A stretch of 41,981 nucleotides of DNA from Candidatus Thorarchaeota archaeon (lineage in GTDB: Archaea > Asgardarchaeota > Thorarchaeia > Thorarchaeales > Thorarchaeaceae): assembly GCA_004524445.1 (NCBI GenBank), contig SDNP01000027.1, forward strand, positions 1 through 41,981, in the 5' to 3' direction. Shown here one piece after another: positions 35,203 to 41,981 of the stretch. How positions within the stretch are numbered: position 1 is the first letter of the stretch; each line of letters starts with the position of its first letter. Both the position numbers and the translations under genes were made by a program. The notes under the pieces are model-generated. The model made no database searches, had not been told where the DNA came from, and was given only the letters and a program-made list of their open reading frames with translations.

Positions 35203-35575
35203 CTAGAGTCGAATCGGGTTCGGTCCAATCTCTCGGATCTTCGCAGCAAAGTCGTTGATGTGTTTGGCGAACAAATCTCCCTCAGCCGCGCTGACGAACA
35301 CCATCTTCACTCGCTCCTTATTCATGCCCAGCTTATCGACCAACTCCCTGGCGAACCGCACTCGTCGTTCGGCCCCGAGGTTACCGGTCTTGTACGCACA
35401 ATCACCCGGGTGACAACCCACCACTAGCACACCGTCAGCACCTTCCTGCAGCGCTTTCATGATGAAGTTGATATCCATTCTCGCCGTGCACGGCATCCGG
35501 ATGATCCGCGCGCTCACGTCGTACTGCAACTTCATAGTTCCCGCTAGGTCCGATGCGGCGTACATGCACTGCATG
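35203..35575 (-). pseudogene. mvhD: 5'-truncated copy of hydrogenase iron-sulfur subunit MvhD
   Basis: Two aa differences from 37006..37422; lacks the first 15 aa including the first Cys of GCMQC; homology stops at 35575. Confidence 0.85.
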
Positions 35576-36558: not shown

Positions 36559-37002
36559 GTGGATATAGTGAATATTCGTCCCTTCACTCCGGAGGATATC
36601 ACCCAGATTATTTCACTCACAAATGAGTATGCATCATTTGATTCCGATGTGACTGCAGCTGATTTTTCCTCTGCCCACGCCTTTCCTCAAGGCCTACTTG
36701 TGGCCGAAGCAGCCGGTCGTATTGTGGCATTCATATTTGGCTATATCAAAGAAGTACCAGGTACCATTCTCAATCGCTGGAATGCACAAAAAGCAGCTCA
36801 GATTAACCTCTTGGTAGTTGAACCGCCCTATCGGCGACAAGGTACCGGAGAGACATTGATGCGCAAGTTAGAAGATGCCTTCCGAGAAGAAGATGTGGAC
36901 CTAATTTTGCTTCACTGTCCCGCAGAAGCCACCGAGGCAAAACACCTCTATGACAAACTTGGTTTTGAGGTCCGTGCCTATGCCATGAAGAAACGCCTCT
37001 AA
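36559..37002 (+). CDS. GNAT family N-acetyltransferase
   Basis: VEPPYRRQGTGETLM, AKHLYDKLGF. Confidence 0.9.
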   Translation: MDIVNIRPFTPEDITQIISLTNEYASFDSDVTAADFSSAHAFPQGLLVAEAAGRIVAFIFGYIKEVPGTILNRWNAQKAAQINLLVVEPPYRRQGTGETLMRKLEDAFREEDVDLILLHCPAEATEAKHLYDKLGFEVRAYAMKKRL

Positions 37003-37005
37003 TCT

Positions 37006-37422
37006 CTAGAGCCGTATGGGGTTCGGCCCTATCTCCCGAATTTTCTCTGCAAAATCATTGATGTGCTTGGCAAACAAATCACCCTCAGCCGCGCTCACAA
37101 AGACCATCTTCACCCGCTCTTTATTCATGCCCAGCTTGTCAACCAATTCTCTCGCGAACCGTACTCGCCTCTCTGCTCCCAGATTCCCCGTCTTGTACGC
37201 ACAATCGCCAGGATGGCAACCAACAATCAAAACCCCGTCCGCCCCCTCTTGTAACGCCTTCATGATGAAGTTGATATCCATTCTCGCCGTGCACGGCATC
37301 CGGATGATCCGCGCGCTCACGTCGTACTGCAACTTCATGGTTCCTGCGAGATCGGATGCGGCGTACATGCACTGCATGCATCCCATGACGATGATGTTCA
37401 TATCTTTTGGAGGCATTGACAA
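37006..37422 (-). CDS. mvhD: Hydrogenase iron-sulfur subunit MvhD (full length)
   Basis: GCMQC, MPCTAR, GADGV...GCHPGDC, VSAAEG, GPNP. Confidence 0.93.
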   Translation of the reverse strand: MSMPPKDMNIIVMGCMQCMYAASDLAGTMKLQYDVSARIIRMPCTARMDINFIMKALQEGADGVLIVGCHPGDCAYKTGNLGAERRVRFARELVDKLGMNKERVKMVFVSAAEGDLFAKHINDFAEKIREIGPNPIRL

Positions 37423-37482
37423 TAACCATCCGTTGAGGGTAGAAATCAGCCTGCTGTTACTGACATATAATCTTTCAGATAG

Positions 37483-37911
37483 CTATTCTTCTGTCCGACC
37501 TTGTTCGTATAGCCATTCAGATAAGGATTCAACACCTTGTTCCGATAGCCTATAACCATCATCACACTCCTCAAAATATTGACTGTAATTGCCACGTGTT
37601 CCTGAAAACCACAAACTAACAGTTGATTGGTCTTTGCCAATTTCAGAAGCTATCGTGGTACCTGTTTTGCAGCTAGGATAGCAATCAAGGAGAGATAATA
37701 TCATTCCATTTCCTGTATTGACTTTGCTTGAAACTCTTCGCCCCTCTTCATCTTCTATCCAGTATGCTGAGGCTCGTTCCATCAGAGATTGGGCCAGTAG
37801 CCTGATTCTATTTCTAGTCTTGATTCTCTCTAGTTCAGATTTGGCATTTATCAGCTCAAGATATGCAGCCTCTAAGTCGGATATTTCCCGCGCTTGTACT
37901 TCAAGCTCCAA
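37483..37911 (-). CDS. Winged-HTH domain protein
   Basis: TIASEIGKDQSTVSLWF HTH, GYRLSEQG wing, N-terminal coiled coil. Confidence 0.65.
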   Translation of the reverse strand: MELEVQAREISDLEAAYLELINAKSELERIKTRNRIRLLAQSLMERASAYWIEDEEGRRVSSKVNTGNGMILSLLDCYPSCKTGTTIASEIGKDQSTVSLWFSGTRGNYSQYFEECDDGYRLSEQGVESLSEWLYEQGRTEE

Positions 37912-37982
37912 TTCCTCATCTCTAAACCTTAGAGTAATCTTGCGTTCATTCTCACCTATGAATACTCACCCAAAACAGAAAA

Positions 37983-38410
37983 ACCCTCTACATCTTATCT
38001 ATGCTTTGCAGCGCATAGTTTGACCTTCTGTAACCACTTGTGCTAATGTGATTGGCTGCATGCACCGACCCGAATCAGGTCTGTGTAGAGGGTGAGTGAA
38101 CCCCCTCAGTGACCGTCAACTCCCGTGTTCCACCCTGCTCGCGACTGCTGTCACCAGCGAGCGCGGGGACCTCTCCCCGAGCCTGTACACGAGCTTTATC
38201 CGAGCGGGCCTCGGATGGAGCTTCACTCCGCTGCACCCTATTGCCATGACTATCAGTAGCCTTGTGGGCGTCGATGGCGGCAGACGGCTGTTCCACGGTT
38301 CTTTCCACGGCAGGGTCGGTAGTGCTCACAAACTCTGCAAGCAGGGCCTGGTCATGGCACTCGGCCGCGGACCGTCCCCGTGAAGCTGATCTCTTCGAGG
38401 ACGGTTCGGA
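37983..38410 (-). ncRNA. Putative omegaRNA-like scaffold overlapping and following the TnpB 3' end
   Basis: Dense hairpins (CCGTCC/GGACGG, ATCCGAG/CTCGGAT, CGGGGA/TCCCCG, GCTCGC/GCGAGC, CTATGC/GCATAG), closing helix ACCCTCTACA/TGTAGAGGGT, then a U-run. Confidence 0.6.
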
Positions 38411-39859
38411 CTTCTCGTTAGAGCGTGTTCTCCTTCGAGCCTTCAAGCTTGCCTGTTTCTTCTCATGAGGAAACAACCAACGCTCTAGTCCGCTCTCATT
38501 CGCAAGTGAAGGAATGAGCTTGATGAGGCGCCGGGCGATATTGATGGCGCCGTTCTTGTCGGCATTGGAGCGATAACCGCAGGTGGGGCAGATGAAGAGG
38601 GACTGCTTGGGTCTGACCCCCTTGGAGCCACACCGGTGGCAGGTGATGGAGGTCCAGGACTCAGGAACAGGAACAAAGTGTGAACCCTTCCCATTTACCC
38701 TCCAGCCCTCCTGGACAAGAGTGTGCCTGAGTCCCTCGCTAACTCGCGCAAAGGTCCAGCGAGCAACTTTCTTTCTGAAGGACTTCCGCTTACCACTCTT
38801 TCTTCCTGCGCTACGGCGGATATGGGTGAGGCGACCGATGGCCACATACAGATTATACTTCTTTGAGAGCTCGAGGATGTGGTCAGTGAGCTCTCGAACA
38901 AGCACACCATCATAGTCGGTGCTGATGTTGGCACGGCGACTTCGAAGTTCCTTGAGCCGCTCGGCTACACCATCATATACTACACCAGCATTTTTTCGGT
39001 CACACATCTCCCGCTGCAGAGCATCTACCATCCCATCGTACCGTTCTATCTGACTAGCCTTGTCCGGTTGCGTGAAGTAGCGTACATACCTCACCCGTTG
39101 TTCAGTCAACACAACAGAACAGACCGCCTTGTCAATCCCAAGATCGATGCCCATGACTGCCGGAGGCAGACCGGTCATGTCAACCACCTCCACCTCCACT
39201 CTCACAGCAAACACAACCCACCATTTACGACGGACGTCCTTGAAGAGCCTCAGGGATGTCACCTCCCCCTCATCCAACCTGTTCAGATGGTAGGAAGAGG
39301 GAGTCAAAGGAATGAGCAATCTGTCATGAGTCCAGCTATCAGTCCGCGCCGAGTCCAAGGAGTCTAACAAATCAAGCCAATATTTTGTCTCCTGGCCCGG
39401 TCGGTACTCCAGTTTGAATCTTCTAGCATATACATACCGAGGCAGCTTTCGCTCCCGATATCCTTCTGACTTGAGGGGCGGCTGTCCATCCAATTCCAAG
39501 TAACTGTTCCACATAGCAACCGCAACTTGCCGACACTCCTGCAGCTCGTTGGTTGAGATGTTTGGGAATCTCTTCTTGAAGTCATGTGGAACAGATAGTC
39601 TATTCCTGGCTGGGTCTTTAAACCGCTCAGCTGTAAGGGTCAGCTTCTCCAGCGCTCCACCGTTGACCCGCTTTCGCTTCTTGCCAACAATGAGTTCTTT
39701 CTCGTGACGCGCAATGACCCCAAGAAACGCCCGGATGACTCGTGTATCCCGTCCGGTCAATCTCTCCAACCTAGACCTATCAGCATCACTCATGCAGTCC
39801 CACTTCACAGGAATTTTCACGCTGATGATTACAGTCTGGGTCTCGGGCATCGGCATCAC
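38075..39859 (-). CDS. tnpB: TnpB/Cas12f-like RNA-guided endonuclease with rearranged RuvC-II
   Basis: GIDLG (RuvC-I), VAIGRL, VPESWTS, CHRC/CPTC Zn finger, NADKNGAINIA (RuvC-III). Confidence 0.9.
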   Translation of the reverse strand: MMPMPETQTVIISVKIPVKWDCMSDADRSRLERLTGRDTRVIRAFLGVIARHEKELIVGKKRKRVNGGALEKLTLTAERFKDPARNRLSVPHDFKKRFPNISTNELQECRQVAVAMWNSYLELDGQPPLKSEGYRERKLPRYVYARRFKLEYRPGQETKYWLDLLDSLDSARTDSWTHDRLLIPLTPSSYHLNRLDEGEVTSLRLFKDVRRKWWVVFAVRVEVEVVDMTGLPPAVMGIDLGIDKAVCSVVLTEQRVRYVRYFTQPDKASQIERYDGMVDALQREMCDRKNAGVVYDGVAERLKELRSRRANISTDYDGVLVRELTDHILELSKKYNLYVAIGRLTHIRRSAGRKSGKRKSFRKKVARWTFARVSEGLRHTLVQEGWRVNGKGSHFVPVPESWTSITCHRCGSKGVRPKQSLFICPTCGYRSNADKNGAINIARRLIKLIPSLANESGLERWLFPHEKKQASLKARRRTRSNEKSEPSSKRSASRGRSAAECHDQALLAEFVSTTDPAVERTVEQPSAAIDAHKATDSHGNRVQRSEAPSEARSDKARVQARGEVPALAGDSSREQGGTRELTVTEGVHSPSTQT

Positions 39860-39864
39860 TCAAC

Positions 39865-39975
39865 GTACTTAAACTTCCGACCTGTCTTGTGTCAGAAGGG
39901 AGTTCACTCACCTCCATATCCAGCAGAGTGAATGATAACCTCCACACATTCTATATCATAATAGTACTTAAACTT
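39865..39975 (-). promoter_or_regulatory. Two identical BRE/TATA-like boxes upstream of tnpB
   Basis: AAGTTTAAGTAC at 39975-39964 and 39876-39865. Confidence 0.6.
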
Positions 39976-40103
39976 ATGAAGACTGTAGAGTTATGAACTC
40001 CTAATTTTCAATTCTAGGCACTCATATGCCTTATCTATTAAAACAGAGTAATAGTCGTAAAACCCGAGAAAGTATATATAAATAAACAATAAAAATGTAG
40101 AAT

Positions 40104-41981
40104 ATGGCTCATTTTGGGTCTCCCAAACAGCCAAACAAGGTCCTCATCACTGCCTTCAAGCGTGGGATGGCAGCGACATTGGCTCTCGCACGGGACCGTG
40201 CCATGGGAGCTGCCCGACCACTGTACTATGGGGATCACCGTGTGAAGGGCATGGCGAAGATCTGGGATGAGGCTAAGAACGCCTATCGAGAGACCCTTGA
40301 CCTGGATAAGCAGCGGAGGTCAGCCTCTTATCGACAGAGTTTCAGCCCCGACCAGCTGGAGGAGCTGGATAGGAAGGTCCTCCCTGACAGTAGACTTCTT
40401 CTAAAGGCGGAGAATAACATCCGGCGCAATTTCTACCGCATCATGTTGAAGACCGCCGTCAAATATGGCAACAAAGAGACCAAACGAGTCAAGCGTGGCG
40501 AGGGCCCACAGGGATACCTCAACCTTCTCTGGGACTACGCAGGCAGTAGAATCCGCGATGTCTGCAAGGCCCGGTACTTCTTTCCCCCGCCCACAGAGCT
40601 CAAGCTCGCAGACGGATCTGAGGGAGTAGGGTACCCTGCCCTCGGAGGACAGTCAGCATACTTGCTGAATCACGACAACCTCCCTGAACTGGACTTTGGA
40701 GACATGATACGAAGCCATCTGGTGGAGCTAGCAAGACAATGCATGAAGTACAATGTGCCTCTCAGGCCAGCCAAACGGTACATCGACCAGCTACTCAACC
40801 GGCTTCTTCCCTTTCTGGATTATGTCTACAGTGGAAGGAAGAGCGGTCGGTCCAACTTCGTGCGTGAGGGAACTGAAGAACTACGTGATGTGGTTGATAG
40901 AATCAGCATACTCTATGGCATGCGAAACGGCAGAGCTCCCTCTATCACTTCCATGGTTGCAGTCGATACAGAGGTGACACTGTCGGATGCTGATGCCCCT
41001 GTAGTTGAAGAGTATCCAGACGACCTCACTGAACCCCAATTCGAGCACACTCCTCAGACACCAGAAGAGAGTATCATAGCCTCTGATACGTCGGTCGAAG
41101 AAGATTTTGAGCAGTCAAAAAATCAGGACTTCTTCGCAACCCTTGTTGGTAGAGCGGAGGAGGAGGGTGTTGATGAGTGGAGTGATGCTCTGGATACACT
41201 CAAACAATTGTTGGATGACGGCATCTTAGATGAGGAGGACGCCGCACAGATTCTGAAACAGGCACAAGAGGAGAGCAGAAGAATCGGCAGCGCATTTCAT
41301 GACTTTGTATCAAAGGGCTTTCCCAGTCCCTTTGTGATGAGTGCAGTGGTCCATCATGGAGATGAGATGGTACAGGATAGGTCCGGCCTCCTGATAGTAT
41401 CCGAGTTGAGCGTTGCAGGAGGAAAAGGGCGAGTTGACCTCACAGTCTTCAGACGGAAACTTTTGCCAAGTGTGGATGCGACTCAACCAAAAGTCATCTA
41501 TGAACCCTGCATGGTTGTTGAGATAAAGACGAAGAGTGCTTTTGAAATCGATATCTACGGGGTGAGGTCTAAGAGTGAGAAGGAGAAGAACATTGTCAGT
41601 GAATTCCTGCTGGAGAGAAGAAGAATCACTGACAAAGAGTGGGCGGACATAAGGGCAAGCATCTCTCCCGGGAGTGTAAAACAGATTGAGCTATACCGTG
41701 AAGCCATGTTGAATGAGTATCAACGAGTGGGATGGATAGATCCGAGCCCACCAAACGAACTGATCAAAGCGGTTGTTCTGGTCGATTCAAAGGAAACGTG
41801 GAGTGCAGCTCGTGACGCATTGCATGCCCTGATTGTCGAGGGCTACGAGATGGTCATGAATAATGGAATCTCCACGGGCGACATTCTTCAGGTCAGCGAG
41901 AACGGAAGCCCGCTGAGATTAGCCATGCATATGGTATCAGATAGCTGTTCAGCCATCGAAGTTAAACCACCTGCTAAGAGA
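40104..41981 (+). CDS. Large protein (>626 aa, 3' end outside the window) with a RecB/Cas4-like PD-(D/E)XK nuclease domain
   Basis: Hand translation from ATG 40104 is open to the window end: MAHFGSPKQP...IGSAFHDF...IVSELSV..GKGRVDL...VVEIKTK...KQIELY. TATATAAA box at ~40075. Confidence 0.85.
   Translation, partial: MAHFGSPKQPNKVLITAFKRGMAATLALARDRAMGAARPLYYGDHRVKGMAKIWDEAKNAYRETLDLDKQRRSASYRQSFSPDQLEELDRKVLPDSRLLLKAENNIRRNFYRIMLKTAVKYGNKETKRVKRGEGPQGYLNLLWDYAGSRIRDVCKARYFFPPPTELKLADGSEGVGYPALGGQSAYLLNHDNLPELDFGDMIRSHLVELARQCMKYNVPLRPAKRYIDQLLNRLLPFLDYVYSGRKSGRSNFVREGTEELRDVVDRISILYGMRNGRAPSITSMVAVDTEVTLSDADAPVVEEYPDDLTEPQFEHTPQTPEESIIASDTSVEEDFEQSKNQDFFATLVGRAEEEGVDEWSDALDTLKQLLDDGILDEEDAAQILKQAQEESRRIGSAFHDFVSKGFPSPFVMSAVVHHGDEMVQDRSGLLIVSELSVAGGKGRVDLTVFRRKLLPSVDATQPKVIYEPCMVVEIKTKSAFEIDIYGVRSKSEKEKNIVSEFLLERRRITDKEWADIRASISPGSVKQIELYREAMLNEYQRVGWIDPSPPNELIKAVVLVDSKETWSAARDALHALIVEGYEMVMNNGISTGDILQVSENGSPLRLAMHMVSDSCSAIEVKPPAKR

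Follow-up and report, generated by a model that had tools for sequence, protein, structure and literature searches.

The window, that is the whole stretch of 41,981 nt of Candidatus Thorarchaeota DNA that was analysed, carries near its right-hand end a tnpB gene on the minus strand, a divergent giant gene on its upstream side and, on its downstream side, a gene that we take, from its sequence, to be mvhD, encoding the delta subunit of F420-non-reducing hydrogenase. The segment upstream of tnpB, which the original prediction had regarded as a separately promoted RNA, is instead the 5′ leader of the Thorarchaeota tnpB mRNA, located beside an Asgard Cas1-like gene. The features of the locus are as follows:

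37006–37422, minus strand: the linked mvhD, with its GCMQ site at 37369–37383
38048–38064, minus strand: native 3′ guide, antisense to the mvhD codons (V-I)-G-C-M-Q of a non-self allele
38065–38447, minus strand: omegaRNA scaffold with an uncertain 5′ end, placed by conserved motifs, fold and a metatranscriptome contig
38075–39859, minus strand: tnpB, 594 aa, RuvC-II-rearranged (D239, G342, E400, D434)
38086–38113, minus strand: anti-repeat-like arm and loop (TTCACTC, 38100–38094) of the last omegaRNA hairpin
38313–38319, minus strand: 5′ strand of the predicted, pseudoknot-like helix closing the scaffold (MFE fold), partner of the scaffold end
39856–39861, minus strand: Shine-Dalgarno-like motif of presumed function, directly behind the leader guide
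39865–39876, minus strand: leader guide, 12 nt identical to the gene's own promoter box, with family-wide covariation
39877–39895, minus strand: small hairpin and scaffold end GGTCGG, the same hexamer as at the omegaRNA scaffold end
39891–39916, minus strand: repeat-like leader segment pairing with the omegaRNA hairpin (Watson–Crick core, compensatory changes)
39899–39945, minus strand: leader 5′ hairpin in the free conformation (MFE fold), with a presumed transcript start near 39945
39964–39975, minus strand: presumed tnpB promoter box with the TATA element 39972–39967, target of the leader guide
39976–39980, minus strand: predicted TAM TTCAT, 5′ of the self-target (flank consensus TT(A/C)AT in 73 loci)
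40104–41981, plus strand: aCas1-like giant gene, cut by the contig end

The TnpB ORF matches the Pfam family Cas12f1-like_TNB (E 2.6e-13) and the NCBIfam model guided_TnpB (84.5 bits, under the cut-off of 100), and its last ~140 codons overlap the omegaRNA. Like RuvC-II-rearranged TnpB proteins (RIIr), it has glycine in place of the RuvC-II glutamate, a substitute glutamate preceding the zinc finger and both aspartates intact, with D239, G342, E400 and D434 being invariant in 20 homologues; PMC10691335 predicts such a rearranged site to be active. A 77% identical homologue is found in Candidatus Thorarchaeota, consistent with an Asgard host, and members of the family, often more than one, occur in 55 of the 87 class genomes. 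At the omegaRNA end, a hairpin with the loop UUCACUC is followed by the scaffold end and then by the guide, and the predicted scaffold-closing helix covaries between clades (CCGACC/GGTCGG, AAGACC/GGTCTT and ATGACC/GGTCAT). Salt-lake metatranscriptome contigs of a close strain cover the tnpB ORF in pieces, and the contig spanning 38120–38447 has a depth of 62 versus 2–15 for the other ORF pieces, a weak hint that fits an abundant omegaRNA; these contigs stop short of the leader span 39875–39950, and libraries of this kind cannot show small RNAs. An internal omegaRNA partner for GTTCACTC at 38222–38235 was dropped, as it is not conserved, a bacterial promoter scan of the locus was set aside as uninformative for an archaeon, and an Rfam search over 37500–40500 returned nothing meaningful. 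Elsewhere, the same genome contains orphan omegaRNA 3′ ends as well as one remnant of a broken tnpB (C22:28095, C41:58143 and C57:1628–2230).

The giant gene is adjacent to tnpB in 16 of 20 extended loci and appears to encode a Cas1 catalytic domain, a Cas4/RecB-like nuclease domain and a P-loop-like domain. The protein has no match in Pfam, Cas1 included, or in the Atlas, and the Cas1 assignment comes from the predicted fold of its 1829-aa orthologue in locus L034 (86% identical): residues 1–260 of the model superpose on Cas1 with a Z score of 13.6 (rmsd 3.6 Å, 178 aligned residues), and Cas1 structures occupy the top 28 rows of the structure search. Weaker matches of the model are to Cas4/RecB-like and KaiC-like domains (Z about 6), and the C-terminal 1070 aa are poorly modelled (pLDDT 64) and gave no usable structural match. 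A BRE/TATA-like motif at 40063–40085 on the plus strand, about 25 nt before the ATG, suggests that the giant gene is transcribed, leaderless, from a promoter of its own, located about 100 bp away from the TnpB target. The neighbours of tnpB are thus this aCas1-like gene and a small ORF, and neither a Y1 nor a serine transposase, as would be expected of an IS200/IS605 element, is among them. The small ORF (142 aa, 37483–37911, minus strand, no Pfam family) lies between the guide and mvhD, as it does in L041, and in L039 and L034 its homologues are grouped close to the giant gene.

Given the Cas1-fold neighbour and the GTTCACTCA motif, which follows a hypervariable stretch at the omegaRNA 3′ end, the locus can be identified as an aCas1-TnpB locus of PMC10691335. 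The accessible part of that paper (Altae-Tran 2023, citing Makarova 2020) calls the Asgard aCas1-associated TnpB systems Cas1H-Asgard-1/2 and describes the same combination of an Asgard host, tnpB beside a Cas1-fold giant gene and a 3′ hypervariable stretch before GTTCACTCA. There the hypervariable stretch was considered a guide candidate and the repeats were viewed as belonging to a transposon, and neither a leader RNA nor autoregulation is described in that part. At the present locus, in contrast, the hypervariable stretch forms a hairpin arm to which the leader is complementary, the guides being located more to the 3′ side.

The complementarity between the upstream segment and the end of the ORF runs exactly from 39916–39891 to 38113–38086, the partner being one base off the position first given, and the 11 contiguous Watson–Crick pairs noticed originally fall within a 16-nt inverted repeat (94%) that forms the duplex core. 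The leader:omegaRNA duplex reaches −39.7 kcal/mol at the window locus, whereas the best duplexes of 40 leader shuffles anywhere in the 2-kb locus average −26.4 and never fall below −31.9 kcal/mol. When homologous loci were compared, as had been suggested, the complementarity was found to be conserved: seven core pairs are 97–100% Watson–Crick in 92 loci, and compensatory double changes in the core occurred on five separate branches (L097, L125, L109/L111, L126 and L094, the last with a less sure anchor than the others), single core changes being mostly G–U compatible, with a few exceptions. The bias towards G–U that favours pairing at the RNA level holds modestly across homologues (86 G–U versus 53 A–C among the duplex mismatches), and the sense-strand duplex is stronger in 69 loci and weaker in 22. 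Cognate partners form duplexes of −26.7 kcal/mol on average versus −21.7 kcal/mol for non-cognate ones and still come out ahead in 31 of 46 pairs after nearest relatives have been exchanged (Wilcoxon p 0.0007; the loci are related by descent, so p values overstate significance). This swap test is weak among pairs at least 70% identical (21 versus 12 for the cognate), and the net pairing gain is only a little better for cognate partners than for non-cognate ones (−6.0 versus −4.9). The arm lengths of the leader and of the omegaRNA hairpin covary (rho 0.56). A second pairing, of 39948–39939 with 38091–38082, is present at this locus as first described but was rejected because it is not conserved (cognate −6.7 versus non-cognate −5.9 kcal/mol).

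The leader also folds by itself, which masks part of its pairing segment; in 33 homologues, 87% of the base helix of its 5′ hairpin is paired. No consensus emerged from RNAalifold on 33 leaders, the middle stem probably aligning poorly, and counts of named helices were used in its place. The leader pattern is present in 32 of 63 genomes having the TnpB family; two matches outside the family were not counted: the two are almost the same sequence, do not resemble the leader and equal the control in number. Within the family, leader complementarity covers the loop of the last omegaRNA hairpin together with its 5′ arm; at the base of the duplex the leader emerges with a scaffold end and a guide of its own, and could thus replace the omegaRNA 3′ arm. 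Covariation shows the pairing, whose geometry would be that of crRNA:tracrRNA, and topology and covariation together fit a predicted complex with TranC-type crRNA:reRNA pairing. Among the options first listed, the crRNA/tracrRNA-like split and the regulatory RNA are both supported by conservation, covariation and topology, and it is likely that the leader uses the omegaRNA as its scaffold.

The main point, which the original prediction had missed, is that the downstream of its two boxes copies the gene's own promoter. These identical 12-bp boxes indeed lie 99 bp apart, at 39964–39975 and 39865–39876, and are the sole copies in the 2.79-Mb genome (90% complete; contig ending at 41981), the promoter being the only 12-nt match of the leader guide; the genome search proposed at the outset yielded no further copies of the motif. 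The guide sits right after the hexamer that likewise ends the 3′ omegaRNA scaffold and is followed by the Shine-Dalgarno motif. Among the 110 loci analysed, 93 could be scored, and in 73 of these the hexamer is followed by an exact promoter copy of 9–17 nt with its target 90–105 nt upstream, the guides comprising 70 distinct sequences. The match averages 12.9 nt for cognate and 2.3 nt for non-cognate pairs, of which 0.7% reach at least 12 nt, and exchanging nearest relatives lowers it from 12.8 to 3.9 nt, with 31 of 34 pairs favouring the cognate. It decays over positions 12–15 and is at chance level from position 16, positions 1–9 being matched by the selection rule and so fixed in this profile. 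The ~20 scored loci without a promoter match are due in part to mis-anchoring and probably in part to decay.

The flank of the self-target has T at −1 in 73/73, A at −2 in 69/73 and T at −4 in 72/73 loci, a TAM-like signal to which overlap with the promoter BRE region could add. TTGAT is the TAM of ISDra2 TnpB, and the presumed TAM consensus TT(A/C)AT is close to it; this flank is found at the target site, and the guide gene copy lacks it. A TATA-like hexamer begins at target position 4 in 56 of 68 loci, the conserved leader start lies 29–33 nt downstream of the TATA-bearing target site, and the Shine-Dalgarno-like motif starts at guide position 15–19 in 60 of 72 loci. The leader guide is thus very probably aimed at its own promoter, and a short spacer matching the promoter beside a predicted TAM is what characterizes crRNA-like autoregulatory RNAs. 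No CRISPR array was found in 37000–41981, either as a cognate array from which such an RNA could derive or as an array of the TranC kind.

We propose that TnpB represses itself by a CRISPR-free, scaRNA/CreR-like guide swap, a reading to which we assign a probability of about 0.6. One promoter would give rise to the leader, the ORF and the omegaRNA, and the leader would act as a one-unit, crRNA-like guide within the tnpB mRNA. Through its GAGUGAAC segment, the leader would anneal to the last omegaRNA hairpin at the loop and 5′ arm and displace the omegaRNA's own 3′ arm and guide; a scaffold end and a new guide would then both come from the leader, in the manner of a crRNA bound to its tracrRNA. 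TnpB loaded in this way would bind the TAM-flanked TATA box of its own promoter, where a match of 12–15 nt would block TBP/TFB without efficient cutting and result in negative feedback. The native guide of the omegaRNA would direct the nuclease to non-self alleles of the neighbouring conserved gene, which would be why the TnpB level needs a cap. The promoter copy, the flank motif, the conserved and covarying complementarity and the intact catalytic residues are observed, and processing, loading, binding without cutting and repression are inferred. Precedents for short-match repression are scaRNA and tracr-L (PMC8730458) and CreR/Cracr with Cas12a (10.1101/2024.10.29.618823). The main caveat is that ISDra2 TnpB cuts with a match of about 12 bp (PMC10097598), so a match of 12–15 nt is not automatically safe. 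The larger enzyme would need a longer duplex, or the split complex would have to cut poorly; that ~70 intact TAM-plus-target promoters survive speaks for one or the other. The self-fold of the leader, the weak swap among close pairs and the ~20 loci without a promoter match also count against the guide swap.

Autorepression would be retained if the leader could load TnpB by itself, independently of the omegaRNA, as a mini guide comparable to tracr-L, which is a natural single guide; its complementarity to the omegaRNA would in that case be an antisense brake on the latter or a trace of common origin. The two conserved hairpins of the leader (86% of cells paired), the small one of which could replace the scaffold-closing helix, agree with this. 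However, the leader scaffold measures about 70 nt versus about 280 or more in the omegaRNA, it is the omegaRNA and not the leader's own 5′ arm that compensates for the core changes in L111 and L126, and one clade is without the small hairpin, and we consider this explanation unlikely. Pairing could also take place in cis on the primary transcript, with the ORF looped out, and control translation start or omegaRNA processing, in which case the guide would be used only once processed, or never. A cis stem enclosing the ORF would leave the same signature in sequence alone as pairing in trans, both partners lie on one predicted transcript, and the Shine-Dalgarno motif is right behind the leader guide. 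This motif nevertheless falls outside the duplex, and a locus-specific promoter copy with a TAM would be unexplained, which makes cis pairing as the whole explanation distinctly improbable; as an assembly route it is compatible with the guide swap.

Two further explanations dispense with RNA pairing. The segments might act as inverted repeats at the DNA level, with aCas1 as the transposase or integrase that recognises them: PMC10691335 reports that aCas1-TnpB loci are often repeat-flanked and that the GTTCACTCA motif resembles the start of a CRISPR repeat, and the neighbouring protein has a predicted Cas1 fold. Yet the promoter and target lie outside the left repeat and the scaffold end and guide outside the right one, and because conserved parts lie outside both repeats, the degenerate terminal inverted repeats initially considered are unlikely. 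The mismatches moreover favour G–U on the transcribed strand, and a leader with a full match is kept in L007/L035, where the giant gene was not found nearby, so that we regard this explanation as very improbable. Two ordinary TATA promoters combined with a chance inverted repeat would account for the TATA-like hexamer in both boxes, AT-rich boxes being alike, but this is already contradicted and has next to no probability: non-cognate boxes share far shorter matches than cognate ones (see the means above), only about 17 nt separate the second box from the estimated start downstream, the Shine-Dalgarno motif comes after the box, and the duplex outdoes all shuffles.

The cap that the guide swap would place on TnpB can be considered in the light of its 3′ guides, which match mvhD, 16S rRNA and tRNA genes. 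In the clade of the window, tnpB is located just upstream of mvhD and the guides are antisense to the mvhD codons GCMQ, in frame and with synonymous variation, with exact matches of up to 13–16 nt to mvhD of other genomes. For the window's guide, no full 17-nt mvhD target was found in 87 genomes, the best mvhD matches being 13 nt; the similarity to mvhD extends over about 17 nt at most and then diverges, unlike the flank of an IS200/IS605 element. The GCMQ site of the linked mvhD has a mismatch to the guide at position 9 and is without T at TAM position −1, and in 22 mvhD-linked loci no guide matches the linked allele versus 5.2 expected from the allele pool (P about 0.002, for loci that are not independent). 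At three loci adjoining a 16S gene, 16S sites whose flank ends in AT are matched by the guides, part of which are arranged in short arrays; in the linked 16S gene, small hairpin insertions break up these sites, apart from one case that shows a mismatch from position 13 onwards. The avoidance of the linked self allele points to an active nuclease, and the escape of linked alleles from the 3′ guides suggests homing, RNA-guided integration by aCas1 near these mvhD and 16S genes being an alternative.

Several further observations concern these target genes. The hairpin insertions at guide-matched 16S sites (L042:5640–5900, L043:16317–16620 and L044:12982–13317) are possibly micro-introns spread or selected by TnpB; L044 has insertions at 4/4 sites, three of them matched by its own guides. 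The 16S gene of the window's genome (G000 contig C9, near 96813) is apparently interrupted at one guide site, and no TnpB copy matching this site was found in the assembly. Copies in or beside tRNA genes occur at L057, L092, L130, L103, L113, L126, L127, L019 and L050, and in a few relatives a continuous tRNA flank serves as the guide, which is the arrangement seen at IS605 insertion sites. Arrays of 2–3 scaffold-end and guide units are located 3′ of tnpB at L021, L022, L029, L036, L037, L054, L055 and L058, and guides within one array differ yet target the same host gene. An omegaRNA end with an mvhD guide lies just upstream of mvhD at L138, L146, L148, L151, L152, L154, L155, L156, L158 and L159, and the mvhD locus is widely occupied among Thorarchaeota. 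Duplicates of mvhD shortened to start at codon 17, inside the guide target, are found in the window (35203–35574) and at L034, L036, L039, L137 and L140; they bracket cargo genes, which in the window are, judging from their sequences, a GNAT-like gene and a PIN-like toxin-antitoxin pair, and look like an insertion or repair hot spot.

TranC uses array crRNAs, whereas here a single repeat-spacer unit in an mRNA leader would serve self-control. As PMC13639567 summarises it, TranC (Jin 2025) is likewise a TnpB-lineage protein with its RNA split into tracrRNA-like and crRNA-like parts, but lies on the path to type V CRISPR-Cas. The scaRNA:tracrRNA-Cas9 system of Francisella (PMC8730458) similarly involves a lone diverged repeat with a short spacer that borrows a scaffold RNA for short-match repression; it differs in employing Cas9 with a CRISPR array against a lipoprotein operon, while here an array-less TnpB would act on the promoter of its own gene, and the scaffold role would fall to an omegaRNA that itself bears a guide. 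The tracr-L of Cas9 and the CreR RNAs of type I and V-A systems (PMC8730458; 10.1101/2024.10.29.618823) are also short guides against the effector's own promoter that are encoded upstream, but tracr-L is a single guide, CreR is without a scaffold partner, and both are CRISPR-repeat derived. TldR (PMC13565253) is a TnpB derivative that blocks promoters in an RNA-guided manner but is nuclease-dead and aimed at host genes, whereas the present TnpB retains its catalytic D/E/D. Arc of IS605 elements (10.64898/2026.09.24.754181) likewise represses TnpB expression but is a protein repressor. Intronless homing by T4 SegF and SegB (PMC13565253) resembles the 3′-guide arrangement in that a free-standing nuclease gene lies by a conserved gene whose linked allele escapes, although recognition there is by protein and in phages, and here it would be RNA-guided and chromosomal. 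No comparable leader guide RNA of a TnpB was found described in the literature searched, the coverage of which is incomplete.

More tentatively, we envisage an array-less CRISPR-like system, which is possible rather than probable. The Cas1–Cas4-like protein would write short guides behind the scaffold end, TnpB would cut non-self 16S rRNA, tRNA and mvhD alleles and thereby spread the element together with recoded or micro-insertion-protected alleles, and the split leader would throttle the nuclease. If true, guide acquisition, tracr/cr splitting and autoregulation would be united in a transposon nuclease.

The leader is most likely a built-in off switch of TnpB in a group of Asgard archaea, of a kind so far known only from CRISPR systems. 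The finding corrects the published guess on the guide position in Asgard aCas1-TnpB and provides a lead on the function of Asgard aCas1, and the predictions of the TAM, of the scaffold ends and of a guide in two parts (about 40 nt plus scaffold) make the family directly testable. Both RNA-guided self-repression and splitting into tracrRNA and crRNA are counted among the features of CRISPR-Cas; if an array-less TnpB family does both, such traits can arise at the transposon stage, which would bear on the evolution of Cas12.
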